Positions 20,984 through 59,588 of a stretch of 64,000 nt of DNA are shown here, piece after piece. The notes below the pieces were generated by a model, which saw only the letters and a list, made by a program, of their open reading frames with translations, made no database searches and had not been told where the DNA came from. The translations under genes and the position numbers were made by a program. The stretch is taken from NCBI GenBank assembly GCA_001724265.1, contig MEDY01000318.1, positions 1 through 64,000 on the forward strand, written 5' to 3'. The stretch's first letter is position 1; each line of letters opens with the position of its first letter. The stretch is from Rhizaria sp. SCN 62-66 (taxonomy: Eukaryota).

Positions 20984-22770
20984 ATGGTGTCCTTCCCGCC
21001 CGCGTCCTGCGTTGCGGCCTCGCGCTTTGTGTCGCCGCGGTCCCGCTCCTCTGGCGGCCTGATTTCCCTCCTCGCTCTTGTCGTGGTATGCGCGCTTGCT
21101 CTGTTCGTCACTCCCGCCGAGGCCGTGCGTCGCCGTCCTACCAAGATGTCCAACAACCCCGTCTCAACGCAGTACACGCCCGAGCCGCACCACTCGCTTC
21201 ACGCCCCCATGGACACGTCGCAGTCGTACTTCACTTTCGGCGGCTCCACTGTCGCGACGAAGAAGTACATGCGTCTTACTCCCTCCACCCAGGACCGTAA
21301 GGGATTCGTCTGGAATGAGTATCCCATGGAGTCGGACGACTTTGAGGTTGAGGTCAAGCTTGAGATTTTCTCTACGCCACACTTTGGTGGTGATGGTATG
21401 GGTATTTGGTTCCTGAATGCTGAGCAGGATCCCTCCGTTTCGTCCGAGCCTTCCGCTCTTCAGGTGCGTTCCTTACTTCTTCTTCCAACTCATATAGCTC
21501 CACGACATATACTCTCCTCCAGAAATGTCGCTGATGTTAAGTTATCATAACTTCTATTGTATTATATATTCGAAAATCATTTCTATCAGCTGAGGTATAC
21601 GCTCACTATCTTTTTTTTGTTTACATGGAAAACAGGGCAATATTTTCGGCATGCGTGAGGATTTCAAGGGTGTCGGCATCTTGCTCGACGTCTACGACAA
21701 CGACTCCAAGCGCAACAACCCGTCCATCTTTGTTGTCAAGAACGACAACGGCAAGTTCCAGTACTCCCACGACCAAGATTTCGAGGACGCAATGCTCCGC
21801 ACTGTCCCCTCCAGTCTTAAGATGGAAGGCGCTACACAGGACTCCTACCGCTGCGTCGCCGATATCCGTAACTTACACCGTCCTATCAAGTTACTCGCGA
21901 AATACCTCAACCGTGTGATGCACGTGTATCTTGATACCGAAGACGGTCAGGGCTACCGCCTCTGTCTTGCTGTCGAGATCCCCGGCCAGCATCCCACTGA
22001 TCCCACCAAGTCCACGCTGAGGGACTCGCACCTTGTCTTCACCGCCGCCACCGGCCAGGTACGTTCCTTTATCTGACGGTAAAACAAAACTATGTAATAT
22101 AATTTGTCATAATCTCTCTTACTCCTTGTTTTTAGAATAAGATTGTTCAATTCGTCGAGATTCCTTCCTAATCCGTTTCTGACTCCCACCCATATCTGTC
22201 TTTTTGGCTTAATTTTGTTTCCGTTCGACCCGACTGATTTAGGTTGCTGACAACATGGACCTCGTTGAGATCACCACTCGCTACCTCAAGAACACCGACT
22301 CCCGCCCTGACATGCGTGAAATCGGTTCTTTCGGCTCCTCCGGCACCGGCTCCCTCTTCGCACAGTTGTTTTGGTTCATTATCACACTCCTCGGCATTGG
22401 TTTCCTCGGACTCACGGCCTACGAGTACCAGGAGTACCGCGCCATGCTGCGTGACCACGTCGATGCCGTCGCCGTTGCCCACCGGTTGAACGCCTACACT
22501 CTCCCCCACTTTTACGCTCACTGCGGCGTCTCGCTGTGTCTCCTTCTCTCCATGTCCTGGATTGCGTTCGCCATCAACGCGCCTCTGCTCATTGTCCGCC
22601 TGGTTCTGCACAAGTACGGCGCGCTGATGCTCTCCTCGGCTCAGATTGCGCGCTTCTCTGCCCGTGGTAGCGGTATCCTCGGCATGAGCCCCGACTCACG
22701 GTACTTCCTTGCACTGGGTACCTATGGTATCGCGGCTCTGGTTTACTGCTACCAGCTCTTTGGCAACTGA
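20984..22770 (+). CDS. L-type lectin (VIP36/ERGIC-53-like) domain fused to a C-terminal cornichon/Erv14-like domain
   Basis: Exons 20984-21463, 21636-22058 and 22243-22770. Lectin motifs YMRLTPSTQDRKGFVW, GGDGMGIWF, GNIFG..FKGVGILLDVYDN and AATGQVADNMD, then RDHVDAVAVAHRLNAYTLPHFYAH..SWIAFAINAPLL (cornichon-like). Stop TGA. Confidence 0.85.
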
Positions 22771-23594: not shown

Positions 23595-26130
23595 TTACTT
23601 CTGCTGCTGCTGCGCCTGCTGCTGCTTGGCCTGATAGTCGGCCACCCACTGGCGGAACATCCCCTGCGCCGCGGCCATCACCCTGGGATCCGCGCCGGCA
23701 GCGCCAGGCATCAACACGCCCGCAGGCGCGGCGCCGCCGGCCATGGCGGACGTCGACCACGACATCGCGTTTGCCTGCGCGGCGGCCTGGGCGGCTGCGA
23801 ACTCGGCCGCGGCGGAGGCGGTGGGGTTCAGCCGGCCCAGCGGACCGCGCTGCGCGTCAGTGAACGTGCCCGGCAGCGGGGCCGTGGCGGCAGAGACAAC
23901 CACAGGCACGGACGCGAAGCCGACAGGGGCGGCAGCACCGGTGCGTGGAGGCTCCGGGATCGCCTTGGTGACGTTGTTGGCGAGTGCGGTGGCTGCCGGC
24001 ATGGCAGCGGCGGCAGAGGCGGCACCTTGCGCGGCCTGAGCGGCGGCGAGCGCGGCTTGACTTTCCGCGGACGGGGGGTTAAGCCGCCCCATCGGCCCAC
24101 GGTCGGCGCCAGGGGTGAAGGCGGTCACGGCGGTGGGGGCCGGGGCAACGGGCGCGGGGACGGAAGTCAAGCCGCCCAGAAGAGGAGCAAGAGAGGGGAG
24201 AGCGATGGGGGCAGCAGCACCAGAGGCCGTCGGCGCAACGGGAGCAGAAGCGGCCACAGCGGTCGCAATCGACTCCTGATTAAAAAAAGCAAAGTCAAAC
24301 CCAATTTCAATGAATTAAGAGCATACATGTAAGGTTATTGCTGCAAAAACCAATAAAAATATAACCTACATGAATCGTTATCACATTAATTCACTTTTGG
24401 GTTTCTAGCAGTTGATATGCGTGAGGTATTGTTGAACAATGTGGTTTTGTGATTTCGATATTTTGTTACGCGTACCTGAAGGCGACCCATAGGCCCACGG
24501 TTGCCACCGGAGAACGGCGAACTGGTGCCCAGCACAGCGTCGAGGTTCACGGCCACGGGAGCGGGGGCCGCGACAGAGGCGAAGCCCGCACTGGCGTTAA
24601 CGGGGCCAGCAGCGAGGGAACTGGGAGGAGGGGGGAAAAGCGAGCGCAGAGACGCAGACAGCGCAGCCTACATTGACACACGCGGACACAATACAACAAA
24701 GAAACAGTAGCCCAGCACAGATGTAGCAGAAACAGACCATGGAGTGACACAAAAAAGCAAATCGGGAAATGAATACAGTGATATTGTGAGCATTTTCCAA
24801 TAAAGTGTTCCAATAACAGAGCCAGAAACACAATTAAATAGCGGAAAATTCAGTCTAAAAGCAAATAAACCGGTAATTATAGCAAGTTTATAGTCAAATA
24901 AAGCGATATAACTCGGTTTTGTAGGGGGGGCTTGGGACGTACCTGAGCAGCAGCGGCCTCAGCAGCAGCGGACGCCTGGGGGTTAAGCCGTCCCATCGGT
25001 CCGCGGTCAGCTCCCGGAGCAAACGCGGTCACGGCCGCGGGGGCCGGGACAGCGACGGGAGCGGATGCGAGACCCGAGAGCAGGGGAGCCAGGGACGGGA
25101 GCGCGATGGGGGCAGCGGCGCCTGACGCGGTGGAAGCAACGGCCGGCGCAGCCGCAGCACCCTGGGGAGGAACCTACGAAGAACGATAGAATAAACGCAA
25201 AATAAAACAAAAGTGGTTGATACATGTGAGAGTTATACAAATGTACATTTTTGACGAGTTTTGTTAAAATAAGAGTGCATATATGTCTTCAAAAGTGAGA
25301 ATCAGTGGTTTAGGGCTCGGGCGTACCTGAAGACGGCCCATGGGACCACGCTCACCGCCCGAAAACGGCGACGCAGTGCCCAGCACAGCGTCAAGATTCA
25401 CCGCAGCAGGAGCCGGAGCCGCGACTGATGCGAACCCACCGGTGGCGCCGATCGCGACAGGAGCAGCAGCACCAGAGCCGAGAACTAGCGGGGTCGTCAC
25501 CGGAGCAGCGGCGGCAGATGCAGCGTTCGCGACCATGCGGCCAACAGGTCCACGGTCAAGCGTGTCGAGATCGCGGACAGGCTCAGTGGGCACGCTCACG
25601 GGGACAGACGCGAAGCCACCGCCGCCGTTGACCGCGGCGCCGGGGTACGGCGCCGAGAGAGCGGGCTGACCGGGAACCACGAGGTTGGGCATCGGGGACG
25701 CGCGGGCGTCGGCGATTGCCTGCTGGAGAGCGGCAATTTCGCGGGCAAGGTGCTGCATGCCGTTGGACATCGTGGTCACGGCGGCAGCGCTGCTCTTGTC
25801 GGCGACTTCGGCCGCCAGAGACTGCGCGAGACCGGCTGCTGAGACAGTCGCGACAGCAGTAGTGGAGCCCGAGGCAGTCGCAGGAGTATCCTCAGAGTCG
25901 AGGTCAGCGTCAAGGTCCTGGGTCTGGCTCTCGGCAAGGGAGAGGAACGATGCGCTCTGCTTCGCGGGGGCATGCTCCTCAGCGGCGGGGAGCGGGGGCA
26001 AGGCGTCGGCGAGAGAGGGGAGATCCATGACCTCGCTCTCGAGCCTGAGCCCGACGAGCCGTACCTGTGCCGCCGCGAAGTGGGCGGACAGGCACGACAG
26101 CACCGTCACAAGAAGAACTAAACGAAGCAT
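23595..26130 (-). CDS. Secreted Ala/Pro-rich protein with six RGP(M/V/L)GR(L/M) repeats, function unknown
   Basis: Exons 25327-26130, 24943-25173, 24476-24667 and 23595-24275, all joined by phase-0 GTACG..AG introns (635 aa). Signal peptide MLRLVLLVTVLSCLSAHFAAA. Stop TAA. Confidence 0.8.
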
Positions 26131-33522: not shown

Positions 33523-36500
33523 TTATAGTAGTTTGCGGACGAGGTTCTTGTGCATGCGACGTAGTGTCTCATTTTCCTCAAGCAACATATCACGCTGTGC
33601 AGTCAGTGCCATCACTGGCGACGACTCGTGCGAGCGTTCATAGACAGCGGAGGAGCTGCGTTGTGGACTGACATGACTGTGTGTGTGTGAAGTGTTCGTG
33701 TTACTGTTGTTGTTGCTGTTGTTGCTCTTGGCAACGGCGCCAACACCACCGCGAAAACTCATGTGGTTTTGGCTCATATGACTGTGGTGCGCAGAGTGTC
33801 CGGCTCTAAAGCCTGATTGATACACTGCCTGTGCATGCGCATGTGCTGCAGCTGTAGCAGCAGCGGCTGCTGAGTTGTCGTCGTAGTCACTGTCCGCGAT
33901 GCCACTGGTGTTGTGTGCATTCACAGCACGGGAGCTGCTGCTGCTGTTGTTGTTGTTGTTATTGTTGTTGTGCATTTGACGCGTCGGCGTTTGTGGCACA
34001 GCGTACGCGCTGTGGCTGATGTTGCTATTGTTTACATTATTCGCGTGAACAGGGGTCGCAGCAGTGCGCAAGATAGGACTGACAGGCTCATATGCATAGG
34101 AAAACACGTCATGCTTGAACACACTGTTTCCCGAAGGTTGTGACTGGTGTAACGGTTGCTGTTGCTGCTGATGCTGCTGGTGATAGAGTGCAGTCACTTC
34201 GCGCATCGCACGTTCACGCGCCGCAGAAGCAATCTGGCTCTCAGTCGCCGAGGCCTCACTTTGAAGTGAGGCGGCTTGACTTTGAGCCGCAGCCAGCTCA
34301 GCCTTAACAGCGTCCACCGCAATCTTCGCAGTGGCAGCTTCAGTCTTAGCGGCGCTCGCTTCAGCCTTTGCAGCATCAGCTTCACTGCGGGCCAATGCGA
34401 GTGACTGGCGCTCGACAGTTAGCGCAATCCGCTCCGCCGTGAGCGCGTCTTGCGAGGTCCGCAGTAACGCGGCAAGCGCGGCGGCCTCGGTCTTGCCTTG
34501 GTCGGCGCGGGCGGCATCGCTGGACTGTGCCGTGGCAAGCTGTGCAGTGAGGGAAAGACACTTGGACTCTGAGGCTAAGTTCTTTGACTCGAGATCCAGG
34601 CACTTAGACTGCAACTGAGCACACTTTGCCTCAGCTGCCGCATATTTGGATTCAAGCGCTGAAAGCTTGAACACAGCGTCGTTGTACTTCGACTCAAGAG
34701 TAGAGCACTTAGCGTCAAGGAAAGAGTACTTAGATTCAAGTGCGGAGTACTTAGAGCGTAAATGCGCTTCCGTCTCTGCTGCTGCTTCTGCAATCTCAGT
34801 CGCACGCCCCTCGGCACGAGCCACCGCTGCCGCTGCTGCCGCTGCCGCAACTCCACTACGACCCGCCGCAGTGCGAAACTCATCATTCTCACCCCGCACA
34901 ACATCTAGCGTCGCCTTGGTCGCTGCGAGAGTTGCCGCAGTTGCGTTCAAGTTCGCAGTCGCTGTCTCGAGTTGAGCCATCGTATCGTCAAGATGAGCCT
35001 TTGTTTCATCAAGCTGCGCAGTCGCGTCGTCAAGCTCTGCCTTGGTCGCTTCGAACACATCCCTTGATGCCCGCAGCGCACTGATAGCAGCGGCAGCCTC
35101 AGCATCAGCGCGCTGCGCCTGCGCGCGCACTGCCGCGCTCTCACTCCCCGCGGCCGCCAGCGCAGTCCGCAGCTGCTGCAGTTGCGCGACCGCAGCCGCC
35201 AGCCTCTCGCGGGCCTCCTCAGCATCCGCAGTCGCTGCAGCGGCTGTGTCAGTCGCAGCGCCGGTCGCACCACGCGCCGCCACAGCAGTTGCCGCCGCGG
35301 TCTCTGCCTCCGTCACAGCTGCAGCGGCGGCAACAAAAGCCTCGGCGGCCGCAGCTTCGCTCTGACGCAACGCGGTCTGACTTTCAGCAAACGCAGCCTT
35401 GCTTTGCGTCAACGCGGCTTGACTTTCAGCCAGCGCGGCTTGACTTTGCGTCGCCCACGCCTCCGCGTCGACAGCGCGTGCCTCAGCCTCCGTGACCCTG
35501 GCGTTCGCCGCGGCCGCCGCTGCAGTCGCCGCGGAGGCCGCAGCAGTCGCATCCGCAACGCGCGCTTCTGCGCCTTCACGCCGCGCCTCTGCAGCCGCAC
35601 ATTGCGCCGCGCATTGCGCCACGCACGTAGCCAACGCTTCCTCCGCGGCCACAGCGCGCGCAGCGAGGACGTCGCACTCGCCGTCGCGGGCAGCGGTCAG
35701 CGCAACAAGACTCTCGTTAGCAGCGGTACGCGCGCTGTGGCCACGCAAGGACTCTTCTGCAAGCGCGGCTTGACTTCGCGCCAGAGCGGCCTGACTTTGA
35801 GACAAGTCGGCCTGCGTGCGGGAAAGTGCGGCTTCGGTCTGCGCGCTCAAGGCCTGGATTTGCGCAAGCGCAGCTTGACTTTGAGACAACGCGGTCTCGC
35901 ACTGAAACAAACGCGTGCGCGTCTCACTTAACGCCGCCTCAGACTGGGCGCACGCGGCCTGACTTTGTGCCACCGCAGCTTTGCTTTCAGCGAGTTCAAC
36001 CTCCTTTGCTTGAGCATGCTTCACAGCGTTCTTGAGCTCGCTTTGTGACTCTTGCAGCAGCGATTGAGCTCGGCAGAGCTCGCTCTCACGCTCAACACAC
36101 GTAGCCTCACTCTGCTTCAGAGCATCTTCAGCCCGCGACAACGTATCGCACAACTTTGCACACTCAGTCTTCGCAGCGGCGGCCTCGCCATGCGCTGCTG
36201 CAATTGCAGAGTCCGCTGCAGCGGCTGCAACGCCACCGGCGCGCCTGACCTCAGCCAGTTCCGCGAGCGCTGCCCGTGTCGCCGCTGATGCCGCGGACGC
36301 CTCGATACGCCCTTCGCGCGCGCCCGCCGCAGCCGTGTCAGCAGCAGCCTCCGCGGTGTTGCGCGCTGTCACAGCTGCGGCAAGCGCAGTCTCAACCTCG
36401 ACAAGCGTGGTCTCAGCAGCGAGCTTAGCGGACTCTGCAGTAGCTTTGCCGTCGATAGCGGCGTCGCGTGAGATCGCTAGCGCACTGCACCGTGCCTCCG

Positions 36501-39500
36501 CTGCGGCGCGTTCGCTTTCTGCAGCACGGAGCGCACGGAGACTCTGAGCAGCCTCTTGTAACGCAGTCGTAAGCTGGGTCTGTGCAGTTGCAACAGCAGC
36601 CTCAAGCTCAGCCACACGCAACCGCAGTGTCAAAAGCATCGACTCTGCATTCGCCTGCTGCGCCAGCGCAGCAGTTGTTTGCGATTGAGCCTCCGTCTTC
36701 GCGACAACAGCGTCATTGGCAGCAATGAGCGCATCCTTGAGCTTTGTGTGGAGTGCTGAGATTTCGCTGCGCACCGCGTCAGCCTCCGCGCGGAGTGCAA
36801 TAACATCGGCGCAAAGTGACTCGACGTGACCGCTTGTCGCACTGCGCCCGCCCTCAGCAGCAGCAGCGTCAAGCCGGGCAGCTGTGGCCTCATTCCGCGC
36901 GAGCACAGCCTCAGCGCGCGCAGCGGCCTCGCTCTCACGCGCCGCTGCAGCTTCACTGTGCGCCGTGTTGGCGTCATTGCGCGCTGCAGCTGCGTCCTCC
37001 CGCGCAGCGGTGACGGCACCGCGGGCCTCCGCGGTTTCAGTGCGCGCTTGCGCCAGCGCTGCCGCCGCGGTCTCGGCATCAGCCCGCGCGGCAGTCACAG
37101 ACGCGGCAAGCGCGCTTTGCAGCTCTGTAACGGCGTCACCAGCGGCAGAGAGTTCAAGCGCGAGCGCGGACTGCTCAGAACCCCATTGCGCGCGTTCAGC
37201 ATCTAGCTGCGCCTCTAAGTGCGCACGGCGCTGATCTAAGTGGTCCGCTAAGTACTGGAGGTTTGCAAGATCGGACTGCAGTTGCGCGCATTGCTGCTGA
37301 AGCTGAGAACGCTCAGTTACCCAGGAGAGCTCACGATCACGATCACGGTCACTGCGCTCACGCTCACGGTCATCACGGAGCATAGCCAAAGCGAGCTCTG
37401 TCGCAGATGAGTCGTTCTTCACCGTGTCACCCAAGTTCGCTGTCGTCGGTAACGCCGACGCAGAGGTTGCAAGTAAGAGAGCGTGCGCAGACCGGAGTGC
37501 GGTTAGCTCCGCAGTTGTGTCAGCGAGCTGTGCTACAGAGGCGCTATGATTGCTTTGTAAATTTGCAAGCGCGGCAGCAAGCTCAGCCTCCTTCTGCGCA
37601 GTGTTCCCGTTGTTGGTGGCAATGATGCTCTTAGCATTGTTAACCGCCTTAATGGCATCAAGCTCCTCAACGAGACTTGCGCGTTCAGCCTTGATCTCGT
37701 CAAGCGCAGTCTCTAGGGCAGTCCGCTCTGCTTTTGCAGCAGTCTCAGCAACAGTCAGCGTACTATCGCGCTCTTGTTGTACCTTGTCACAGACACTGCG
37801 AAGCAGCTCACAGTTGCGTTGAACTTGTTCGAGATCGGCAACAGCCTGCACACACTCCGTCTTGGCAACATCACGCTCGACGACAGCAGTATCACGTTCT
37901 TTCACTGCAGCATCGCGCTCTGTAAGTGCGCTGTCACGCTCAGCAGCGATCGTGTCACGTTCAGCAATAGCGGCGTCGCGCTCAGTCACTGCAGCGTCGC
38001 GGGAAGAGAGTGCAACAGCACAGTCTACATGAACGCTTTCGTTCTCAGCCACAGCAGCGTCACGCGCTGCAGTCGTCTCGCCGAGCAATGTAAGTAGCTC
38101 TTGGCACTTGGAGGTCGCCTCGTCGCGCTCTTGCTCTGCACTTGCACGCAAAGTTTCGCTATTTGCAAGACTCTTCTCTGTATCCAGACACTTCTTCTCG
38201 AATTCACTACACATCGATTGCAGAACTTCGCACTTTGAGCGCATCTCATCACACGTGGCTGCTAACTCGTCGTGCTTTGACTGCTACAACTCACTTTGAC
38301 TTTGAAGAGTCTTGTTCTCAGCCTGACACTCGGTTGCCTGAGCGAGCAGTGCATCGCGTTCTGACTTCAAACATGCGTTTTCGGATTGCAGAAAGTTGTA
38401 CTGCGCCTGTAGACTTTCGCATTCCGAGGAAACACCAGAGGCTGCCTGCAGTGCCAATTGCAATTTCTGCATCAGCGATGCAGCCTCAGCCACAGCTGCT
38501 TCCTTTTCAGCAGTGAGAACCGCTAAAGCTGCTGCCGATCGAGTGTCCGCCTTAAGAGCAGCCTCAGCCGCAGCCGCATTAGCGGTCACAACAGCTTCAG
38601 CGACCGCAGCAGCAACTGCGTTAGTGACAGCAACACCGTGGGCTTCGTCAGCCTCAGCTGCAGCTGTAATCGCAGCCGCAGCGGCGTCAGTTGCAGCCTG
38701 CAGGCGCACAGACTCGCTCTCCTCAAGCGCGGCCTGACTTTGCTTCAGCGCGGCTTGAGTCTCGCGAAGTGCAGCCTGACATTTCTGCGACTCATGAGCT
38801 TTCTCATGCGCCGCGGCTTGACTTTGCTGCAGCGCGTTGTCCTTCGCAGCAGCAACCTCTTCCCACTCAGCCTACGCAGCGGCATGACTCTCGCGCAACG
38901 CGGCTTGACTTTCGCGCCACTCAGCGATAACTTCACTCCACTGTGCCTCACGCTGCGCAGCCGCCTCCGCCGCCTCAGCCGCTGCTTCAGCAGCTGCTTG
39001 CACGGCGGCCTCGGCTGCTGCCTGCGCAGCAGCCTCGGTCTGTACCAACGCGGCTTCGTTGTCGTACAACGCCTCTTTGGTCTCTGCCAGCGACGCCTGG
39101 CACTGCGTCAGCGCGGCTTGGCTTTGCTCCAAGGCAACGTGAATGTTTTCCTGCTCAACGTGAGACTGGTCCAACACGGCTTGACTTTCCGCAAACGCGG
39201 CGTGACTTTCCTCCAGTGCAAATTGGGTGTCATCTAGTTGCGCGCGCATGCGTGCGAGTTCTGCCTCCGCGCCCTGCTTGGCAACCTGACATTCATCGAA
39301 CGCGGCTTGACTTTCCGTGACGGCCTGTTTCATCTGCGCATGCGCGGCCCGCATCACCCCATGCGCCTCAGTCAATGCGACATTCGCCCTCTCCATCTGC
39401 TCACAGTCGTTTTCCGCTTGCGCCATCCGCCGTTCCGCACGCACAGCCCTCGCATTCGCACGCCACGTTGCCATGGTGATCGCCAGTCGCGCGCGAGCCC

Positions 39501-42500
39501 GCGCCGCCGCCACAGCAGCGCCAGCCGCGCAGCTCGCCGCGCCAGCCGCCGCGCCAGCCCGCGCCGCGCGGACGACTGCAGTCTGCGCGCGCCAGCGACC
39601 GAGCAACCGCGCCGCCGCGGCCCGCGCCCGCCCACGCGCGCACACGTCGGCAATGGCGTCGTCGCGCGCTCGCGTTTCAGCACCGCGCGCGTTGTGGCGC
39701 CACCGCCGCAGCGCGTTGGCCACTGCGGCACGCTCCGCCTTAAGCGTGGCATTCGTCGCGATAACCGCAATTGCAGCGGCAGCGCGCTCTTTGCGCAGTG
39801 CATCCGTTGCAGCGGCGACGACTTGCGCGCCAGCGACTTCGCGCGATAACGCTTGCCACCGCAGCAACGTGCGCTGCTGCCGGCGCGCAACAGAGCGGGC
39901 CAGCGTGGCCGCTAGCGCACGCGCTCCCGCGGCTTGGCGCTGCTGTGCAGCAACCTCGGAGGCTTCGGCGGTCTCAGCGCTAGCGCCAGCAAGTGCGGAG
40001 AGAGATCGCCACTGCAGCAACGCACGGTGCGCCTGCCGCGTCTCACAGCGCCGCACAACAATGCTAACTGCCCGGATCAACGCAGCTACACCAGTATCAC
40101 GCGCACGCTGCTGCTGTTGCGCGCTCCGCTCCCGCTCGCTTGCCACAGCCGCTACCGCCGCTTTGGCGCGAATATGCTCGCGCCAACGCGCTAGCCCAGT
40201 AAGCAGTTGTTTCGCGCGCGACTTGTCAAGGATCCGCGCAAGAGTCGCGGTGCGGGCCACAGCAAGCACGTCACGCCGGGTCCGTTGCGCGGCCGCAGCG
40301 GCGCGCCAGAGCCGGAACCCGGTCACCCGCAGCGCAGCTTCACGCGCGCGCGCCAACCCCGTCGCGTGCGCGTCACGCACCGCGGCCAGCGCGGCCGTGT
40401 CGCGCGCAGCCGCTTCAGCGCGCACGCGCTCGGTGACCGCGCTCGCTGCGTGCGCGCGCCAACGGCGCAGTGCGGTTGCGAGTGCGCGCGCGCGACGAGC
40501 GCGTTGTAGTAGAGCAGCGGCGGTGGCTATGGCGCGGACACTGTGAGTGAGTTGCCGCCAGTGGCCGAGCGCGGTGACAGCAGAACAGCGCGTGCGGCGA
40601 GCGGCGGCGGCAGAGAGCGCGCGCGTGAGCGCAGTAACTGCACTGCTGCGGGCCGCTGCGGCAGTGGAAGCTTTTGCTTGTGCTGTAGTGCGGGTCTGTG
40701 TCACTGCACGCCAGTGTGCAAGGCCGCGCGAAAGAGATTTGACCTTGCTTGTGAGGGTGATCGCGGAGACGACTGTGAGAAGGGCGCGTGCAGACACCAG
40801 AGTGACTGGTGCCGGGAGTGAGACTACTACGGTCGACGGCGGGTAAGGGGCAAGAGCCGGGGCGCTTAGAACGTGAGGCGCGATAACCGTGAGCACGCTC
40901 GTAGTCGCAGCTGCAGCGCCATCGCCGTCGCCGTCGTCGTCTTTGTCACTGAAGTCACTGTAAGTGGCACGCGTTAGCGTCTTGATGTTGTTCGCGGGCA
41001 GAGCTACGGTGCGACTGCGAATCCCAGCGTCATCGTTGCTGTCTTCGTCACTACTGGAGTGGTGGACACCACGTGCACGCATCGATTTACGACCACTGCG
41101 AAATACCGCTTTAGACTGCAATTGAGGGCGGGCATCAGAGTCTGAGTCCGTCGGCAGTGTAGTGGAGACAAGAGGGCGGTGCAAAAGCGCACGCGCACGC
41201 ATCAGTGCACTGACAGCGTCCCCATCTCCGTTGCTCACAGTCGCACTGTCACTGCTCAGGGTCATCACGCCCCGCAAGTCGTTCTTTGCTGTAGCTCCGC
41301 GGTTGCTGTCGGTGTCACTGTCCGAGCTAGGACCGTCAGAGTGAGAGTGGCCGTGCGCAGGGTGTGGCTGCACTGTTCCAGTTACGCTGTCAAAGCTGCC
41401 CCCGGAGACCAGGTTGGCGGTGGGCAATGTAGGCATCGCGACAGTGCTGGCGGCAGGGCTTGGGGCAGTACGACTGCCAAAGCTTGCAGCAGCAGCAGCA
41501 CTGGTGCGGCCCAACTGTGTAGCCTGCTGATTTGGGGCAGCACTGTGTGTCTCAAGCTCTTCAACATTATTCTCGTCGTCATAGTCATCTTGATTATGAC
41601 CTGCGCCGTAACTAACGTGATCATTCGCGTCCATAGTGTTCGTGCTAGAGTCTCTCTTCGTTGGCAGATAGTTGAAGCTCGCTGCAGATGGACCGTGGCC
41701 GTGACTGTAAGCACCAGGAGCTGCGGCGTTCACAGCATTTGCGCTGATGACAGCAGGTGGGACCGAAAGAGGCCGCGGGGCTGTGAACGCATGCGACGCC
41801 ATGGTGCTTAGACTATGCAAGGGCTTGTTCCCAGCGCCAGCACCAAGGTTGCGCTTCTGAACAGTCGCTGCAGCAACATGGACTGAGGTGGTAGCCGCAA
41901 TGTTCGCTTTCGCTGCAGCACCTTTAGCTGTGTAGCTAGGCGGTGTGAGGGGCGTAGGCGAGGAGAAGTAAAGCTCCCGCACTGTCGGAGTTGCGCCGCC
42001 CACAGTCACTTCCCCCTTAGATGTCGGCGGCAACGCAGCGCGACGCTTATCGTCCACATCAAAGCGGCCAGGGGTACTTACATACAGGGCACTTACATCC
42101 TGTGGAGTAGAGTTAGAAGCAACGTCATATCCGTGGTCGTGGCAGTGGGCGGCGACTGTAGCAGCAACGGCACGGGCAGCGGCGGCGGTCTCTGCCGCTG
42201 CAGCTGCGACTTGGGCAGCAGCGGTCGCCTCGCCAGCGGCGGCGGCCTAACTTTCCTTTGCTGAGTCGGCAAGGTGATGGATAGCGTGCATTGCCTTCGC
42301 GAGCGCAGCGCTAGCAGCACGCGCGGTGCGATTGTCCCGCTGGTGACTATGAGCACTGCTGGTCGCGGTGGCGGTCGCGGTGGAGGTCATGTCACTCTCA
42401 CTATCGTTTGTCGCGTCAGTATGGGAGTCGTCAACGCTCTGTGTGTCCGCAGCGTTATTGCCGTTCCCACCACCGCGAGTGCGATTCGTAGCGTTGCTAT

Positions 42501-43407
42501 TGTTGCCGCCACGGCGACGACGCTCACGGCCAGCCCGCAGCGCGTGTACCTGTGAGCGAACCTGTGACTGCAAGTGTGACTGCAAACCAGAGGTACTCAT
42601 GAGTCGCGGTCGCGGCACTGTGGGGAGAGCGGGCGGCGGTGGCGGGAGCGGCGCGTAGATTGCAGCCGCTTCCGCCTCAAAGTCCTGCCGTGACGGTCCA
42701 AACTGCTGATGTTGCTGCTGTTGCGGGGGGAGTGGTAGTCCCGTTATCACACCTGTATTGTGGCCGTGAGCGTGACTTTGGCCGTTGCCGCGAGCGTGTA
42801 AAGATATGTCGCCAGTACTCACAGTAACGGCGCCAGGCGCAACAGTAAGCGTGATCCCGTCACCACGAGCACTGCTCGTTGGAGAAACAGATACTGCATG
42901 AGGAACAGTGGTTGAGGGCGCGGCAGGACCATACGTCACGCCGACAGCGCTATCACTCGCGCTGTCATCGCTCTGCAACGCCCCACGCTGCGCATCAGCG
43001 CTCCCGGCAGCCACAGCGGACGCGGAACGCGCAGCGGCAGACAACTGCGGACGCTTCGAGTGCACGCGCACGCGCACACGCGCTGCGTGCGCTGCGCCTG
43101 ATGCCAGTCCGAGGCGCGCGGCGTCAAGCACCGCAAGAGCGCCAGCGGCGGCGCGGGACGTGTCCGACTGTGCCGTCGAGGCCGTGGGAAGTGACGCAGC
43201 AATGCCGGGTGCAAGCGGGTTGAAGGGCACACTGGAGGCACAGGCAGTGATGGTGGCGGGCGGCGGACGCGCAGAGAGCAGTTGTGGTGGCGGGGGATCA
43301 AGGCCGAAGGGCGCGGGAGCCAGAATAGGGCTGGGGGTGAGGCCCGGGGCTGGGGTGGTCATTGCACGGGTGCTATACCTCGCGAAAAGCGCGTGCTGCG
43401 GGTGCAT
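33523..43407 (-). CDS. Giant (~3294 aa) protein with Sfi1-like LxxWR repeats and a long coiled coil, read through three in-frame TAG codons
   Basis: ORFs 42247-43407, 38872-42057, 38284-38709 and 33523-38244 share one frame. They are separated only by TAG at 42247-42249, 38872-38874 and 38284-38286, and the linking codons are open and of the same composition. Stop TAA at 33523. Confidence 0.8.
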
Positions 43408-45083: not shown

Positions 45084-48000
45084 TTAAACATCGTAGCCGG
45101 TCCCGGTGGCAGTCATCTCAAGGTCGGCACTCTTGGCTTCCGTGCCTTCCTTAAAGCTAGAGTTCGAGAAGCACCAAAGCTTCTTGTAATACAAAAAGAT
45201 CACGATGCCAGCAATGATGAGGAAGCCGCCGACGCCAACGACAACGCCTGCAATTATGTCAGCGTCATTACTGCCACCAGTGCTGCTGTCCGTCTCCTCA
45301 CCAGAACTCGCCTCAACAGCACCAGTGCCAGTACTCGCGGGCAAGCCCTCGCAGGACGAGCCGCACGCGTCATCGGTGATGCCGACGTTGGTCGCGACAG
45401 CCGTACTCATCGTCGTGGTCGTGATCGCCTGGCCAGCACTCAACGCGTCCGTAATCGCCTTGAGGGCCGCGTACGTGTCAGCCATCTCGGCGGAAACTGC
45501 CTGCGCAGTGAAACGCGCGGCGGACGGAGGACGCAGGCGCGCGAGGTGCGAAGCAAAAGCGACGGGCAGCGCACCAGCCTGTTGGCTATCGTCGTTGCAG
45601 TCGGGGCCGGCGTTGATGAGAACATTGACAAAGTTCCCACTCTTGGTGGAGACGCTGCGCACGCTGGCGATGGAGTAAACAACAGTGGTTTTGCCACCGA
45701 GCGTCCTGGCATCTGCCTTGAGCGCGGCCGACCACAGGGCAAGCTGTGCGGCCTCAGTAGACGTGCCGAGGAAAGGCAGCGCAGACCTGGGGAACACGAG
45801 GTGCAGGTTAGCAAAACGGCAACCGCAGTTGTCGTCCTTGTAACCAGGCTTGCACTTGCACTTGCACTGGGACGAGATAGAGCCAGAAGTTCCCATCATC
45901 GAGCACGAGTTCTTGCACGTGTTGCAAGTATCACCGCCAAAGGGCGAACTCGTGGGGCAGGTGCACTTCTCAGCACACTTGACAGTACTAGTTGTCTCGT
46001 CATACACTGAGAGCGGAAGGCCGCCGTTGTAGCAAGTCAGAGTCGCGCAAGCACCGGTGTCAACAGCCTCGTTACACAGCGCGCCCTTGAAGAGCGCAGT
46101 CGTGCCGTCGGTACCGGTGCGGCAGTTGCACTTAGCCTGGTCGTCCTCGACCGTGCAGCTTGCGGTGTTGACGCTGTTGCACGCGGCGCCCGCGCACGGT
46201 GAGACGGAGCAGTCAGAACCGGACCACGCACCCTTGCACATACACTGGCCCGAAGTATTGTCGCACGTGCCGCCGTTGGCGCACGAGTGCGACAGACCTT
46301 CCGCGGGGTCACAAAGCGAGTAAACCGTGACGGAGGCCGACAATGTCACGGATGTCGAGTAGAACACAGCCACGGTGTACGTGCCGGGAGAGAGACTGTG
46401 CGTGGCGGCGCTGATTGAAGTGGAGAGAGCGCCGATGGCGATCTCTTCAATGAGAGAAGGAATCGAGTATCCAGGCAGTGTGAGGAGCACGGAAACCTTA
46501 GCGCCAGCGACGGCGGCCGCGTTAGTGGCCCAAGCAACGTCAATGGCGCGAGTGGTCTTGTTCCATGCGACAGTGAGCTCTGAAAGCTTGATGGAGCTGC
46601 TACACATTGCGCCAAAGTAACCGGCATTGCAAACGCACGTGGCGAGCACGTTGTCGTACGTCGTGTCGCCCACCTTGAACGACTGGTTGCCAGTACATGT
46701 ACCACCGTTAGTGGCGCAAGTCGCCTCAGGCGTGTCGCAAGTAACGTAGGCAGGAGGCTTGCTTGCTGTGTCACAGAGGTACGCCGCCGCAGCCACCTTG
46801 CTTCCAGACGCGTTCACGAAGGCGCAGTCCGAGGTCTGCGTGCGGATCGACTTGCACAGCGGCGCAGTCGAGGTGGCGCACGTGGCCGACTGCGTGATCC
46901 TCCAGCTTGCGGGCTTGGTGCAGTCAGTTGGGACATTGGCGCACGCTTGGGTGAGTGATAGCGAAGCATCCGTGCACAGAGCACTGTCAACAGTGGCGCT
47001 CGACGCGGTATCGTAACATACACCAGTGCGTGTGGCGGCACCGCACGTGACAACCTGGTTGTTGATGTAGCACTGGTCCTCAGTGTTGAACTTCATAGCG
47101 CACGTCTCGGTGTTTGATCCACACGCCTTCTTCAGCACAGGCGGGTTCTAAGAGACTAAAGAAGGGCAGAGGGCCCCGATGTCAGTGGTGCTCGTCGAGT
47201 CGGCAACGCACACAGCAATGCGCTCCACCGATGGGTTGGTGTGGCAACCGGAGGAGCTGGCGCAGGCGCTATACCCACCGTTGTTGACACAATCAACCGC
47301 GGTGTTTGTGGTGCCGGCTGCGTAGCACTTCCACATAGCATTCGGGCACGAATTGTCGGTGCAAGACAGCGTAAGCGTCGGCTTGGCAGTGGCGCACTTG
47401 GCAGTATCAGCGGTGGCCTTGTACGCGTTGTTGTTAAGACGCGAGCAGTAAGGTGCATTCAGGGGGCGAGTGCCTGTGCCGCAGTTGTTGCTGCAGGTAG
47501 TGCTGAACTGCGTGGCGTCTGAAGTCGAGCACACAAGGCCTTCGGCAGCAGCGCCGTTGGAAATGCCCGTGCAGCGCCAGTCGTAAATGCAGGCGAGGCC
47601 GGGGGTCTCGAGCGAGGAAAAGCCCGCAGCAAGATCCATTGTGATGGTGCCAACCTTGGCAGGCACAAGTGTGGCAGAGCGGTCGCAGTCGTCTGTCACA
47701 GCAAGCGTCAGCGAGAACTGCAGCGAGCCCTCGGCAGTGGGCAGCTTGTCACTCAGCGGGATCGTGATCACGCCACTCGCAATATGGCCGGTGATCGTAA
47801 TCGCGGTAAAGCTATGAGAACTCGCGGTGACACTGATGGGCAGCTCGGAGTTGTCGCTGTAAAGGGCAGCAATAGAGCTGGTAAGCGTAATCTTGCCTTC
47901 AGCCGCGCCTTGCTGGAAGGTGAAGTAAGAAAGCGCAAGAGTGAGGGCCGAAGTGGTGACAGAACTCTTGGTAACCTTAACGCCAGTCACTACAGTGCAC

Positions 48001-51000
48001 ACAGCCATGTTGAAATCGGCAGTGAACGCGCCATGCGAGGTCGCAGTCACCAGTGCAGCATTGGTGGAGAGCGCGAACGAGCTCACGGTCTCGCAAGCCA
48101 CGGCCGAGTCAAGCGTGGGTCGTACAACGAAGGAGCCTTCGGTAGGGAGCTCGGCGTTGCCCGAAAAGGTAAAAGACACGGTTATGGCACCAGTGGCATT
48201 ATTATACGCGAGGCCCGCAGTGACGCCGTCAACAATAGCGTAGTGTTCGTTCAATACTTGCACTTTGGTGATGGACAAGCCAGTGAAAGGGTTTGCGTGG
48301 CTCGTGTTGGCGCGCTCAATGGTGAAGACATTAGTGAGGGCCACCTTGTCCTTGTTAGAGTAGGTAAGCCAGGAGACGACAAAGCCGGAGTTGCCAGTGA
48401 GCTTCATTTCGTCGCTCTCAATCGCAAGCCCAGTGAAGACGGCAGGGCACTGCTTGGAAGTGTACGACGCCGACATCGAGCCCGCTGAAGCAGCGTGCAA
48501 AATCACCGACGAGTCGGAACCCGAAGAGAGAAGGAAGTGGGATGTGACACCGCAGGTTGCACCGGTGCTGAGCTTGAGAGACAGCGTAAGAAGGCCATTG
48601 ACGGGCATTGGGCTATCCGTCGTGGGGGCAAATGAAACGATGTAAGCACCGTCGTCGACAATGACGGTGGCAATGCCAGCAACAGAAGCGCCAGCGCTAG
48701 TGAGTGTGACAGTGGCGGGAGCTTCGAGATTGAAGGCGTCACTGCTGCCGTCCGAGGATGCAAAGGAGAAGCTCGACTTGAGCGATACACTCATCTTGTT
48801 AATAAACCCGGTCCATGTGAAGATGGCGTTGTAGTTATCGCCGTCAATCTCGCTCGTGACGCTGACGCCGCGAAACTCAGCAGGATCGGGGCATACTTCA
48901 GTGGACGCAGAGACGGTCAGATCAGAGCCGGAGAACCCGGAAACGTTGCTCTCATCGACACCAAGAGTGTACTCGCTCGCGAGGCCGCACTTCTGAGATT
49001 GAACGGCGTCGAACGAGAAGAAGCCCGGAGCGGGGATAGTGTTGGTTCCAGTGCCGCTGAACGCAAAGTGGAAGCCAGCGTTGCTAAACGTGACCGCGAC
49101 ATCAACGTTCGCACCGACATTAATGGGGGCTGTAGATCCAGAAAGCGCATTGAAAACTGCGGCAGTGCTGCCACTGAACAAGATCGAATAGTCGGAGAAG
49201 TCCTCCATGGGAATATTGTCAGTATTCTCAAAATCGGTCCAGGAAACGGTAAACGTACTCTCGACAAGCGTAAGTGACATACCGCTAACACTGGGACACG
49301 CCGCGGCGCGCGCCTCAGTGGCCACCAGAGTCGTATCAATCGAGTTGCTCACAGTGGCGATTGCAGTATTGGCCGAAGAAATGATATAAGAGCCCGTAAA
49401 GGTCTGACTGCACGAGTGAGCGGTTTCGTTGATCTTGGGGACGAAGACAAAATCAGCATCAGCAGGCATCGTGGCGCCGTTAACAATACTAAAGGTGATC
49501 GTAATCACACCGGCGATACTCTTGGCAGTGGCGCGAACGTCGCTGTTCAGCACCACAGTTTCGGGCCCCCACTCGCTGTCGTACACCTGGGTACCAGACT
49601 CGAGATTGATCTGCAGAGTCGGAGAGGCGGTGTTAAACGTGCTCACGGTGACGCCAGTCCAGCTCACGGCAAGCTTTGCCTTGCCTGCGTCCACAAACGC
49701 ACTGAGAGCCATGGTGTCAAACGAGATCGGGCAGTTGGCCCAGACGTACGTGGAGACAAGCGCGTCGTTGTCGCCGTCAATGGGCGCAAACGACGACGAG
49801 TCCATCTCGGCGACGAGGAACACTTCAGACGCGTCGCAGCTATGTGACTGCTGAGAGCGCGGGGGCTCGACGTCGACGTAAGCCGCAGTAGGGAACACAG
49901 CAGTTGCGTCAGCGCCGATGTAGACAAACGACAGCGTGATGGTAGAGTCAGCGACAACGGCAGTCACGGCCCAGTCGGCGTTGACCGTGCCCGTGGGGTT
50001 GTACAGCGCGGCGAGCGCAGAGGCCGCGTCATCAATGAGCGAGGAACTCATTGTGGCCACGTCAGCATAGGAGATCTTGACCATATTCTCAAATATGGTT
50101 GCGTCCGACTTAAAGCCGGTCCACGAGAAGCGGAAGCCGACGGAACCTTCGATTGCAGCCAGCGTGTTGTTGACGTCGTCATCGTAGGGCGCGGTGAGGC
50201 GCACGCCGGAAAACGCACTGATGCAGCGGGGTGTGCTGGCAATGAAGTTGACAGCGCCAGACACGACCGGATTGCTGTTATCGACGATGTACATGCCAAG
50301 GCCGGTGGTGTCCTCGGGGCTTAGCTTCTGTGCGGCATTGACAATGTCGCACTTTGCAACGAGCACTGTGTCAAATGAAACAGAGCCCGACGTCGGGAAG
50401 GAATCCTGGGTGCCCGTCTGACTAAACGTAATGTAAAGACCATTGTTGTCATGCGTCAGGTATGCGGCGAACGTGAGCTTGTTTTCTTCAATCAGCACAT
50501 AAGTTTCGGGGAACTTGGCAGCCTCGAAAACGACGACCCCCGTAGTTGTGGCAGGGGCAATCCTAAGACTCACCATGGTCTCCTTCAGGGTCAACGAGTC
50601 ATCGTTACGGTATCCCTGCCACTCAAGCCTGACGCCTGTGCTCGTCTGCGTGACCGTGACACCCGTCATTGTGGGGCAGGCAGGCGTGCGCACGTCAACC
50701 GACAGCAGGGCCATGTTAGTGTTGATGATCGTCGCAAAGTCAGTGTTACTCGACTCAAGCGTGATGCTTCCAGTGGAAACCGACGCGCACGTAATCAGAG
50801 AGTCGATGAATTCAAGGTTAAAAACCATGGTACCCGATAAAGGAAGCGCCGTGCCAGGGGCAGTTGAAAAGGATAGTGTCATAGGGCCGCCGTCGGTAAC
50901 GATTTTAGCAGTGGCAGGGTAGCTGGCGTTCGCATTAACAGTCAGATGGAGCGCTTGAGCCTTGAAGAGGCCATTGTTCATCGTCAAGACCAGCTCCGGC

Positions 51001-52973
51001 GACAGCGGGCTTTCGCTGGCCATCGTAAGTGACTCCCAACTCACAGTAACTGACGCCGCGCCATTGCTGTCAAGCTCAAACTCCACCTCGGCATTCTTAA
51101 AAGTGATAGGGCACCATGACCACACGAATTCCACTGAGAGTGACTCGGCAGACTTCTTCAACAAGAGATTGCTTGAGTCCGCGCTGGAAACATTGTGCAT
51201 GGCAAACGTGTTGCAGGGCATCTCCTGGGCATCAATACCCGTGATGCGCGTGGGGAAAATGTCAAAATAGCCAGACGCGGGAAAAGTGGCGCCCATTGAC
51301 TTGGTGACGCTTACAACAAAATTGCCGGAGTTAGAGTCAAAGCTTGCGGCTGCGGTGATCCCGGCGGCAGGAGTTTTGTCACTTGCGAAGATTGTCACGA
51401 TGTTGTCAACACCCGTAAAAAAACCGGGGTTATCCTCACCGGGAGAAATGACCATGACGTCGTCCCCGTTGAAACCAATGTTATCCTTGAAATTGAGCCA
51501 TTGTACGCGCAGAGACGCAGTGCCGGCAGCCGGATTAACGGTATCAGCGTTGACACTGAGCGAAACGGATGAAAATGTGTTGTACTGGCACATCTCCGCC
51601 TCGTAGACCGCGGAGGCACCGGCATTGTTGTTGGCGTCGGTCACAGAAAGGAACAAAGGATCGGCAGCCTCAAGGCGGTAGTTCGAAGTGGAATCGCAAG
51701 CCATTTCCTCCGCATAGCTGGCAAATGAGAAGCTACCGGATGTGGGAAAGGCGCCCACCTGAAGTTGTGTGAACGTGAGAATATACTCGCCATCGTCGTA
51801 CTCAAGCTTGACCACAGTATTTTGGTCGCCGTCAACTGTCTGATTTGGCGGATTATTCAGGATACCATACAGGGCCGCGTACTCACTCTCAGACGCAGTC
51901 TTAATCTTGAGCGGCGAAAGCCGCGTTACGGGCACGTTACTAGGATTGCTAAAGCCAGTCCACGCGACTGCAATAGAGAGGCCTTCGCCCATCTTAGCGC
52001 TGAAGCTCACGCCAGTGATTTGGGGGCACTCTGCGAGAGTGACAGTGACAGTGGGCTCGCTTGAGACGGCGGTAACATCTGAGTCGGACTCCAGCTTATA
52101 GTCACCAACAGTGCTCTTGGAGCACATGCCAATCGCTTTCACGGGAACGATGAAGGAGCCCGCTGTGGTGGTGGAGAGCGACTTGTCTTCAGGAATGTCG
52201 AACTCAATCATGATATTGTCATCGGAGATCTCCGCCCAAACGGTGACTCCATCGGAGCCGGTAACATCGGTAGACTCGCCCGTATCAGAATCAAAAATCT
52301 TGGCGCCGCCAGTGTTCTTGAGGATCAGCATCGGATTAAAGACCTTGTGTGTGTGCACTGACATTGACACGCCGGACCACCCGACGGTGACCTGAGGCAC
52401 GCCCTGCACCAACGCGGATGTCAACGTCACGTCAGCAAAGCTCACCGGGCACAGCTTACCGTGGAACGTAACAGACGAGGAATACAGAACGTCACCTTCA
52501 CCGCCCGAAACCGTGTACTGTGCGACGGTGTCGCAGGGCACGTCCTTGTTGAGCGTCATAACGAGGGTCACATAATTGGAGTCGCTCGGAAAAACCTCGC
52601 TACATTGGAAGGAAAGCGTGATTCCGCGGTCGCTACTGTCGAATTGCGCCGTAAATGTGCAGTCTTCGGAGGAGAAAGTGGCAGAGGTGATCCCGGTGAT
52701 CAAGAGAGGATCGTTGTGCGCGTCCCCAGTGTAGTCAAGGAAGAGTGAGTATTCAAAGTCGGAGCTACTGGTAGGGTCTGAGGTGGCGTCCCAACCGAGA
52801 ATGAATTTAGAAGAACCGGAAATGCTTCCGTCGTAATCGTCGGCGAAAGAGAATTCCTCGTATGTCAGACCTGCAGTGGCCGATACGAGACTTGAGAGCG
52901 AAAGAAGGACGCTTAACAGCACCACAAGGAGACCCAACGAGCACGCCCGCTGAGGACCCCGCCGTGAAGTCAT
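45084..52973 (-). CDS. Large (~2629 aa) type-I membrane surface protein: ~12 beta-rich repeats, Cys-rich TSP1-like and EGF-like modules, TM helix; one in-frame TAG
   Basis: ORFs 47148-52973 and 45084-47138 are in frame and joined by TAG AAC CCG CCT (CPSLVS*NPPVLKKAC). Signal peptide, EGF-like CANGGTCDNTSGQCMCKGAWSGSDC, TM IIAGVVVGVGGFLIIAGIVIFLYY and a short tail ending GYDV. Stop TAA. Confidence 0.85.
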
Positions 52974-55733: not shown

Positions 55734-55765
<32 letters not shown>

Positions 55766-58700: not shown

Positions 58701-59588
58701 CCCCACAGTGCTGACTCCAACGGCAACAACGGCGACGGCGGAGGCAATGGCGACGAGAGCAGTGAGAGCAAAAACCCGAGCAGCACTTCCGCGATCGAGT
58801 CCAGTCCCAGCTCCACTGAGTCAGGGTCTTCTCCTTCTCTGCCGCTGCCCAATACTGAGGCGGCCGCCGACCCTTCCCTGCTGCTGCCGTGGCGCTCTTA
58901 CCCCGGTGCGACTCTGGACCCCGGTCAGCCGTATCTCTTCTGCTTCCACCCGCACGGCATCTACCCGATGACGTCATTCTGGGCTACACGCCACGAAGTC
59001 TTCCGCTCTGCCGCGCCGGGCGTTGAGGTCGACGTGCTGGGCGCCAGTGTGCTCGCCTTCTCGCCCGGTTTGCGTGATGTTTTCCTCGCCACCGGCGGCC
59101 GGGACGTTAGCCGGGCGTCGATCCTCAACTGTTTCGCATCGCGACGCAGCTGCTTACTCATCCCCGGTGGCCAGCGCGAGATGAAGTACGCGGACTACTA
59201 CGACCGCAACTTCACGCTGTACGCACGCCACATGGGGTTTGTCCGGCTTGCGCTGCAGGCAGGTGTTCCACTGGTTCCCGTCTTCTCGTTCGGTGAGAAC
59301 CAGATCTTGCATAACCTGCGGCTGCCGCGCGTGCAGCTGCTGATTTACCGGCTACTGGGCGTCTTTGTGCCGATGTACCCACACGGGCGCTGGTTCTCGC
59401 TCATGCCGAACGCGACCAAGGTCACCGTGGTCTTTGGCGCACCGGTGTTTTTGCCGAAGATCGACAACCCCACGGCAGATGAAGTGGCTGCGTTCCACTT
59501 TGAGTACTACGGACGCGTGCACGAGCTGTTTGAGAAGCACAAGGCTGCCGCTGGCTTTGCGGACTCCACGCTCACGCTCGAGCTGTAA
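54357..59588 (+). CDS. DGAT2/MGAT-family acyltransferase with a long N-terminal extension containing a duplicated membrane module
   Basis: Single 1743-aa ORF from the first ATG. C-terminal YLFCFHPHGIYP, LIPGGQRE and RHMGFVRLALQAGVPLVPVFSFGEN are DGAT2-family signatures. Stop TAA. Confidence 0.9.

Follow-up and report, generated by a model that had tools for sequence, protein, structure and literature searches.

In-frame TAG codons in two giant genes

The stretch of DNA analysed here, hereafter referred to as the window, comprises positions 1 to 64,000 of contig MEDY01000318.1, deposited as Rhizaria sp. SCN 62-66, and it carries two giant genes in which the stop triplet TAG occurs in frame at four sites. 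Judged from its sequence, the window is nuclear DNA of a GC-rich, intron-bearing eukaryote; its GC content varies between 0.48 and 0.68, the coding parts being GC-rich and the spacers less so. The reading that we prefer, with a probability of roughly 0.6, is that UAG encodes leucine in this organism and that UAA and UGA remain stops. The genes and sites concerned are listed below, with an asterisk for TAG in the translated contexts.

33523..43407, minus strand: giant coiled-coil gene, 3294 codons from ATG to TAA if TAG is read through
45084..52973, minus strand: giant surface-protein gene, 2630 codons, stop TAA, one TAG at 47148
38284..38286, minus strand: TAG site 1, codon 1708 of the coiled-coil gene, SQSEL*QSKHD, at a core position of periodic Leu/Met heptads
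38872..38874, minus strand: TAG site 2, codon 1512 of the coiled-coil gene, SHAAA*AEWEE, at a shift of the heptad register
42247..42249, minus strand: TAG site 3, codon 387 of the coiled-coil gene, SAKES*AAAAG, in Ala-rich low-complexity sequence
47148..47150, minus strand: TAG site 4, codon 1942 of the surface-protein gene, PSLVS*NPPVL, in a loop insertion of a Cys-rich repeat
38194..38403, minus strand: heptad array, residues 1669-1738, core positions L, L, L, C, L, TAG, L, M, L, F

Without readthrough of TAG, the coiled-coil gene falls into four open reading frames (ORFs) of 386, 1124, 195, and 1586 amino acids (aa), which share one frame and are separated only by the TAGs at 42247, 38872, and 38284 on the minus strand. 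Its own frame holds these three TAGs and no internal TAA or TGA, compared to 12-27 TAA, 21 TAG, and 44-158 TGA in its other frames. The two giant genes together contain four TAGs, no TAA, and no TGA as internal in-frame stops within 5,924 codons, and their other two frames contain 6-40 TAA, 2-21 TAG, and 44-158 TGA. Behind the first TAG, the frames of the coiled-coil and surface-protein genes continue over 2,900 and 687 codons, respectively, with no frameshift, TAA, or TGA. The hexamers on the 3′ side of the TAG at sites 1 to 4 are CAGTCA, GCTGAG, GCCGCC, and AACCCG. Relative to the approximately 15,000 codons of the window, the four sites amount to about one in-frame TAG per 3,700 codons. All four contexts had been quoted in the initial annotation of this DNA, and they are present on the minus strand as described there.

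The surface-protein gene is organized into a signal peptide, repeated domains, a Cys-rich and EGF-like part, and a membrane anchor. Its 2630-aa product shows about ten repeats of a domain of ~170 aa, followed by four Cys-rich units, EGF-like modules, and the membrane anchor. The Cys-rich units, which gave no Pfam match, presumably resemble thrombospondin type-1 repeats.

Authenticity of the TAG sites

The four in-frame TAGs are genuine and not assembly errors, because independent sequencing runs (X4 and X7) and eight contig records with the site-2 ending carry the same stops. The X4 contig spanning 37183-38801 represents a strain with ~0.7% divergence and shows 12 differences from the window, none of them at 38284-38286, and the X7 contig spanning 38721-38944 is identical to the window, site 2 included. 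The piece that ends in RESHAAA right before site 2 is found as three database proteins, recorded from one, four, and three contigs (JGI; Logan/ENA; ENA) and identical except for the chosen start. The 670-aa piece downstream of site 4 (P0001) is recorded from four contigs. Furthermore, several studies whose samples were taken between 2015 and 2025 show the stops unchanged. Part of the window DNA is held by nine of the 11 metagenome runs listed, which come from bioreactor, wastewater, activated sludge, and fuel cell samples of the same years (2015-2025). No variation was seen at those TAG sites that could be checked in strain contigs and cluster members, and among the matches and cluster members seen no strain, species, or orthologue had a sense codon in place of any of the TAGs.

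Gene ends and the probable reading of TAG as a sense codon

Pfam searches on the long ORFs of the window identified TAF6, SART-1, a branch-2 histidine phosphatase, Sec24, kynureninase, and a DGAT2-like acyltransferase. A scan of 264 shorter ORFs, in which TAG was masked as X, added RPL11/uL5, a TAF histone-fold exon, a DUF3456 protein with a terminal KDEL, a ZIP transporter, an FtsJ methyltransferase, an ERGIC-53-like lectin, cornichon, and further Sec24 exons. Several of the window genes are split by introns of ~100-250 nt, which are AT-richer, end in TAG, and begin with a GTACGT-like sequence that reads as VR behind an exon-final Q. Besides the TAA ends of the two giant genes, the following gene ends could be fixed.

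1325..1327, minus strand: TAF6 stop, TAA
5868..5870, plus strand: DUF3456 protein stop, TGA, immediately behind KDEL
6877..6879, minus strand: ZIP transporter stop, TAA
14858..14860, plus strand: SART-1 stop, TGA
17754..17756, plus strand: histidine phosphatase stop, TGA
22768..22770, plus strand: cornichon stop, TGA
23595..23597, minus strand: last-exon stop of a GPMGRL-repeat gene, TAA
26709..26711, minus strand: Sec24 stop, TGA, with the C-terminus as in the relative P0003
33265..33267, plus strand: kynureninase stop, TGA
59586..59588, plus strand: DGAT2-like protein stop, TAA
62786..62788, minus strand: stop of an ORF of 404+ aa at the right end of the window, TAA

The 13 fixed gene ends thus comprise seven TAA, six TGA, and no TAG. 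This is a small sample, from which FtsJ, the lectin, and small ORFs with a last exon not established were left out, and five of its ends (Sec24, DUF3456-KDEL, KYNU, DGAT, and ZIP) are anchored by homology or motif. Since no gene ends at TAG and four in-frame TAGs lie inside the giant genes, TAG is probably read as an amino acid, and we consider it highly likely that it serves as a sense codon with UAA and UGA kept as stops. The initial annotation had taken such a reassignment as its premise, which is well supported by the gene ends and by the contrast between four internal TAGs and no internal TAA or TGA, and further by the recurrence of the same stops in independent runs and contigs, by the continuity of the heptads, and by strain insertions and deletions (indels) that are only in frame. 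In the heptad array, L1701 and L1715 are separated by 14 residues only if the TAG of site 1 is counted as exactly one residue. This exact spacing therefore indicates that TAG stands for one residue, and an intron or a skipped codon is excluded there.

The strain comparison comprises 182 differences, 40 of which are listed, and the synonymous and non-synonymous counts rest on the listed ones. Indels between strains measure 3, 3, and 30 nt inside the coding sequence of the coiled-coil gene, versus 3, 5, 2, 1, and 2 nt in the adjoining intergenic stretch. In the surface-protein gene, 15 of the 22 listed differences are synonymous, as are seven of the 13 downstream of site 4, a region that encodes the EGF-like part and the membrane anchor. 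Contigs of polyA-RNA (X6) map to both giant genes, upstream and downstream of the TAGs, but not to the intergenic bins 43916-45217. None of those listed, which are contigs and not raw reads, bridges a TAG, and RNA libraries may contain DNA.

Several observations weigh against the reading of TAG as sense, and they can be combined into the alternative that UAG is still a stop and that the TAGs are tolerated nonsense alleles, or sites of low-level readthrough, in two dispensable giant genes at the beginning of decay. We regard this alternative as unlikely. In its favour, all four TAGs are confined to two giant, non-conserved, and weakly constrained genes, a distribution with a probability of about 0.02 if TAGs arose at an even rate, and none occurs in the ~9,000 codons of the other window genes (a sum of ORF lengths that includes all conserved exons). 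The coiled-coil gene, in addition, evolves nearly neutrally between strains, with four synonymous versus 12 non-synonymous listed differences, as a decaying gene would. TAG is also the nonsense codon most likely to arise in these GAG/CAG/AAG-rich genes, and a rough count of one-step precursor codons in the giant genes gives it as the outcome of about every second random nonsense change; the chance that all four would be TAG is therefore ~0.08, so that the absence of other stops is only modest or weak evidence. The alternative is opposed by the lack of TAG at all 13 gene ends, by the long frames behind the first TAG, by coding-sequence indels that are all multiples of three, and by stops that are identical in the samples of 2015 to 2025. 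As for readthrough, the CAG TCA behind site 1 fits the CAR-YYA context known from tobamoviruses, whereas sites 2 to 4 are followed by G, G, and A and not by the C that stands directly after the stop in leaky contexts. Three readthrough events per mRNA would leave little product, and where programmed readthrough involves a single leaky stop with a stimulating 3′ context and UAG as a terminator elsewhere, the coiled-coil gene has three TAGs and no gene end is TAG.

It is very improbable that the TAGs are artefacts or lie inside tiny in-frame introns. Every other TAG in the reading frame of the conserved window genes is the last triplet of a GTACGT...TAG intron, and GTGAGTTG precedes site 1, so that GTGAGTTGTAG resembles a miniature intron. 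The real introns, however, are ~100-250 nt long and AT-richer, and excision of 11 nt at site 1 would break both the frame and the heptad; an artefact, in turn, is opposed by the same stops in the independent runs and the eight contig records.

The residue probably specified by UAG

No TAG occurs in any Pfam-matched exon of the window and no conserved column can be read, so that the case for a particular residue rests on context. At site 1, the heptad series given in the initial annotation (LQSENAC ... LQSMCSE) is exact. In the register of the TAG itself, 11 of the 14 positions within ±49 residues are hydrophobic core positions (7/7 upstream and 4/7 downstream), and the same-register neighbours from -21 to +21 are L, C, and L on one side and L, M, and L on the other. 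Only 31 of the 2200 positions between residues 901 and 3100 have hydrophobic residues at all four ±7/±14 neighbours (17 of them Leu, one Gln), which places the position of site 1 beyond chance. In the same range, 54 positions have Leu or Met at three or more of these four neighbours, and they are occupied by Leu (32), Ser (4), Ala (4), Phe (3), Cys (3), Val (2), Gly (2), and one each of Met, Gln, His, and Thr, with no Glu, Lys, or Tyr. The share of residues found in this context is 16% for the Leu of the protein, 0.7% for Gln, and 2.6% for Ser; by the coiled-coil protein's own statistics, site 1 favours Leu over Gln by ~24:1 and Leu over Ser by 6:1. Among the 20 in-frame 21-mers most similar to the unit behind site 1, Leu is the first residue in 10 and Gln in none.

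The other sites contribute less. Upstream of site 2, the core register is that of the residue before the TAG (4/7; W, W, L, A, V) versus 0/7 for the register of the TAG, and downstream it is the TAG's own (4/7; L1526, L1547, L1554, and L1561) versus 1/7. From this switch it follows that a one-residue shift lies between residues 1504 and 1526, and that the TAG is either a core position or the polar position after it. The initial annotation had noted an echo between *AEW at 38872 and IAEW; the string IAEW does occur 14 residues upstream, but not at the same heptad position, and it carries no usable weight. Its description of SAKES*AAAAG and PSLVS*NPPV as uninformative is borne out, since site 3 lies in an Ala run and site 4 in a loop insertion, within four extra residues that are missing from three sister Cys-rich repeats. 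Its statement that Leu fits better than Gln holds in that Leu is the best-fitting residue at site 1, on one informative site and not on the two that it counted.

When the context of site 1 is combined with the priors from published cases in which only UAG is reassigned, leucine is a likely identity of the residue, given that TAG is sense. The difficulties of this assignment are that only site 1 of the four discriminates between residues, that site 2 is ambiguous between them, and that a nonsense change from TTG to TAG would likewise hit a Leu position. In addition, Gln is commoner than Leu among the known UAG-only reassignments, the order by frequency in PMC11687900 being Gln, then Leu, then Ser and Glu. 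Accordingly, UAG could be glutamine, decoded by tRNA-Gln(CUA), in which case site 1 would be a core position of a weakly constrained coiled coil where Leu has given way to Gln. This commonest UAG-only outcome is known from Iotanema, Hartmannula, Trochilia, and Protocruzia (PMC11687900; PMC5304391), and CAG is the commonest one-step transition neighbour of TAG, with 104 CAG against 47 TTG in the coiled-coil gene. The gene tolerates residue changes (12 of 16 listed strain differences), and site 2, if the upstream register is kept, would be the position after the core, which is polar there (R, Q, E). Sites 2 to 4 thus permit Gln, whereas site 1 disfavours it, because Gln occupies one of the 54 (or one of the 31) comparable core positions and Leu 32 (or 17); we consider glutamine improbable. 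Slightly less probable still is another residue, such as Ser, Glu, Tyr, or another hydrophobic one. UAG is reported to be read as Ser in Scotinosphaera and as Glu in a ciliate with UAA=Lys (PMC11687900), and comparable positions do hold Ser (4/54), Cys (3), Phe (3), and Met (1). Tyr, with only eight residues in the coiled-coil protein, is too rare for the counts to exclude it. Opposed to these options are the complete lack of Glu, Lys, and Tyr in the Leu/Met-type register (0/54 each) and the fact that the available sections of PMC5304391 and PMC11687900 offered no UAG-only precedent for Tyr, Phe, Met, or Cys. Leucine therefore stays the preferred residue.

A further observation in the coiled-coil gene concerns strain X4, in which two adjacent changes at 37919-37920 turn codon 1830 from GAG (Glu) into TTG (Leu). 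This Glu is the first residue of an ERDxxxx repeat, and TAG is one of the two single-step intermediates between the codons. A path through TAG was given no weight, as the GTG intermediate or a single event is equally possible.

Relatives of the window genes

A word-indexed protein search with Sec24 gave 81 matches, one of which (P0003) is 70-72% identical and the rest ≤42%, with named species at ≤39%. A tree was built from 45 rows (15 named and 30 unnamed), taken from these matches plus the cluster member P0084; the other matches, mostly plants, were left out. The tree, rooted only at its midpoint, includes no rows from Rhizaria, Amoebozoa, or alveolates. It places the window and P0003 together on a long branch of their own, which falls outside the groups of plants, diatoms, red algae, and fungi/choanoflagellates. 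The look-up of Sec24 in the Atlas returned generic Sec23/24 clusters only. A scan of metagenome contigs seeded with the Sec24 alignment found 25 loci, the best 40% identical, and did not return the window's and P0003's own contigs; scans of genome contigs and viral contigs found no relative.

The giant genes were searched with stretches across the TAG sites. A 701-aa stretch over site 4, compared with proteins of 385-1227 aa, found only the window's own downstream piece, and a 501-aa stretch over sites 1 and 2, compared with proteins of 275-877 aa, found only an unrelated ERD-repeat protein. Full HMMER with the 501-aa stretch gave 226 matches, of which only one, the window's own piece ending at site 2, has E ≤ 1e-30. 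Collectively, the protein searches recovered no protein whose sequence continues across a TAG site, nor an orthologue to which the giant genes could be aligned. The two matches inspected, P0083 and P0087, share ERDAxxx heptad repeats with the coiled-coil gene; they are unrelated look-alikes and not kin, and we take them to be bacterial. P0087, of the ERD type, spans neither site 1 nor site 2. Such look-alikes probably account for most of the HMMER matches, judging by their query range, residues ~400-500.

The Sec24 protein of P0003 (742 aa, on a 9.8-kb contig) runs unbroken over three intron places of the window gene (26712-28110), and thus the relative is either intron-poorer or its contig is RNA-derived. 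In the window, the NPF/FG-rich N-terminal part of Sec24 on the minus strand is open in 29761-30693, in a frame different from that of the main exon (28109-30310), and P0084 (790 aa, on a 106,564-nt contig with the same genes as the window) shows a third frame upstream of ~30090 in this part. The frames conflict presumably because the low-complexity sequence contains an indel or assembly slip, or because a small intron is present.

Two of the metagenome loci, L008:499-1647 and L009:499-1647, are near-identical Sec24 genes of an unrelated organism (GC 0.47) and are 34-36% identical to the Sec24 of the window and of P0003. Their in-frame stops are two TAG and one TAA in L008 and three TAG and no TAA in L009, with TGA in neither. 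A TAG of L009 stands opposite Gln in L008, the TAA of L008 stands opposite Gln in L009, and a shared TAG aligns with a conserved Sec24 Gln. This looks like a UAR=Gln code, probably that of a ciliate.

Possible mechanism and comparison with known UAG codes

In the proposed mechanism, UAG would no longer end translation and would be decoded as a rare sense codon. A tRNA with the anticodon CUA would be charged by leucyl-tRNA synthetase, and its simplest source would be a tRNA-Leu(CAA) gene copy changed by mutation; the anticodon is generally not recognized by leucyl-tRNA synthetases (PMC5304391). The recognition of UAG by eRF1 would presumably be weakened as well. Within the window, ARAGORN found no tRNA and Rfam no match, rRNA is likewise absent, and eRF1 is not among the genes identified.

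The use of UAG as Leu with UAA and UGA as stops has been documented for the nuclear genes of Rhizaria sp. exLh (Sainouroidea), in which 71 genes contain 384 in-frame UAGs and Leu occupies 82 of 86 hyperconserved columns (PMC5304391). In both exLh and the window, only UAG is found in frame, the UAA and UGA stops being 56 and 15 of 71 in exLh and 7 and 6 of 13 in the window. Leu is the best fit in both, and in exLh, too, UAG is rarer in some gene classes, which has been read there as less efficient decoding (PMC5304391). Unlike exLh, the window has four UAGs in ~15,000 codons, and none of them in a conserved column. Three uncultivated phyllopharyngean ciliates from TARA also use UAG as Leu and have suppressor tRNA genes (PMC11687900). 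They read UAG as sense, as is probable for the window, and like the window they keep the UAA stop and are known from metagenome assemblies; in contrast to it, 78-91% of their genes use UAG and UAA is nearly their sole stop (PMC11687900). With its GC content of 0.48-0.68, introns of 100-250 nt, and TGA as six of 13 stops, the window is not ciliate-like.

A code with UAG=Gln and UAA as stop is known from Iotanema spirale, Hartmannula sinica, Trochilia petrani, and Protocruzia, and in Iotanema UAG is a minor codon, with ~8% of the Gln codons (PMC5304391, PMC11687900). This type shares with the window the decoupling of UAG from UAA, which needs a tRNA with the anticodon CUA, and it differs from the window in that the single informative site favours Leu over Gln by about 24 to 1. 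In Amoeboaphelidium protococcarum, UAA and UAG both encode Gln (UAR=Gln; PMC5304391, PMC11687900). It is a non-ciliate eukaryote with stop-codon reassignment, as the window's organism probably is too, and a code of this type was considered and ruled out, because TAA ends seven of the 13 window genes. The species is a parasite of algal cultures, and hence of reactor-like habitats. Among organelles, UAG=Leu occurs in the mitochondria of Sphaeropleales green algae and of Spizellomyces, with the same codon and residue as proposed here and with decoding by tRNA-Leu(CUA) (PMC5304391). The window differs from these in holding nuclear genes with spliceosomal-type introns (TAF6, SART-1, Sec24, and RPL11). 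The use of UAG as Leu with UAA and UGA stops is thus already known, and the present case differs in how extremely rare the codon is and in its host, which has no named relative.

Other features of the window

The region 23598-26292 on the minus strand contains the GPMGRL-repeat gene, which is built from repeated exons; every one has ...GPMGRL(Q/N) at its end and a GT intron start immediately after, the next exon opening right behind the TAG acceptor. Two of these exons (24470-24613 and 25321-25464) are 74% identical over 144 nt, and the gene matched no Pfam family. On the plus strand, 54303-59585 encodes the DGAT2-like enzyme with an N-terminal extension of ~1,500 residues, which is mostly low-complexity and includes two similar membrane segments, ...FQPFAGGARFVLLQALAWT... 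and ...FQPFRGGRRFVLLQALGWM... A dispersed repeat was also sought in the window and none was found.

Significance

Standard-code gene callers cut long genes of this kind into pieces, as seen in the database entries P0001 and P0086. Few nuclear lineages are known that decode UAG differently from UAA, and those covered in PMC5304391 and PMC11687900 already have it as a common codon. It is possible, if rather doubtful, that the window represents a further independent nuclear UAG-to-Leu reassignment at an early stage, in which gene ends no longer use UAG and the triplet has returned as sense at a frequency of about one in 3,700 codons, to date confined to the two giant genes, both under weak constraint. 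In that case, the public metagenomes in which the organism occurs would allow the order of events, namely the loss of the stop function, the gain of a tRNA(CUA), and the spread of the codon, to be examined. If true, such an early-stage reassignment would show the codon capture route in progress in nature.

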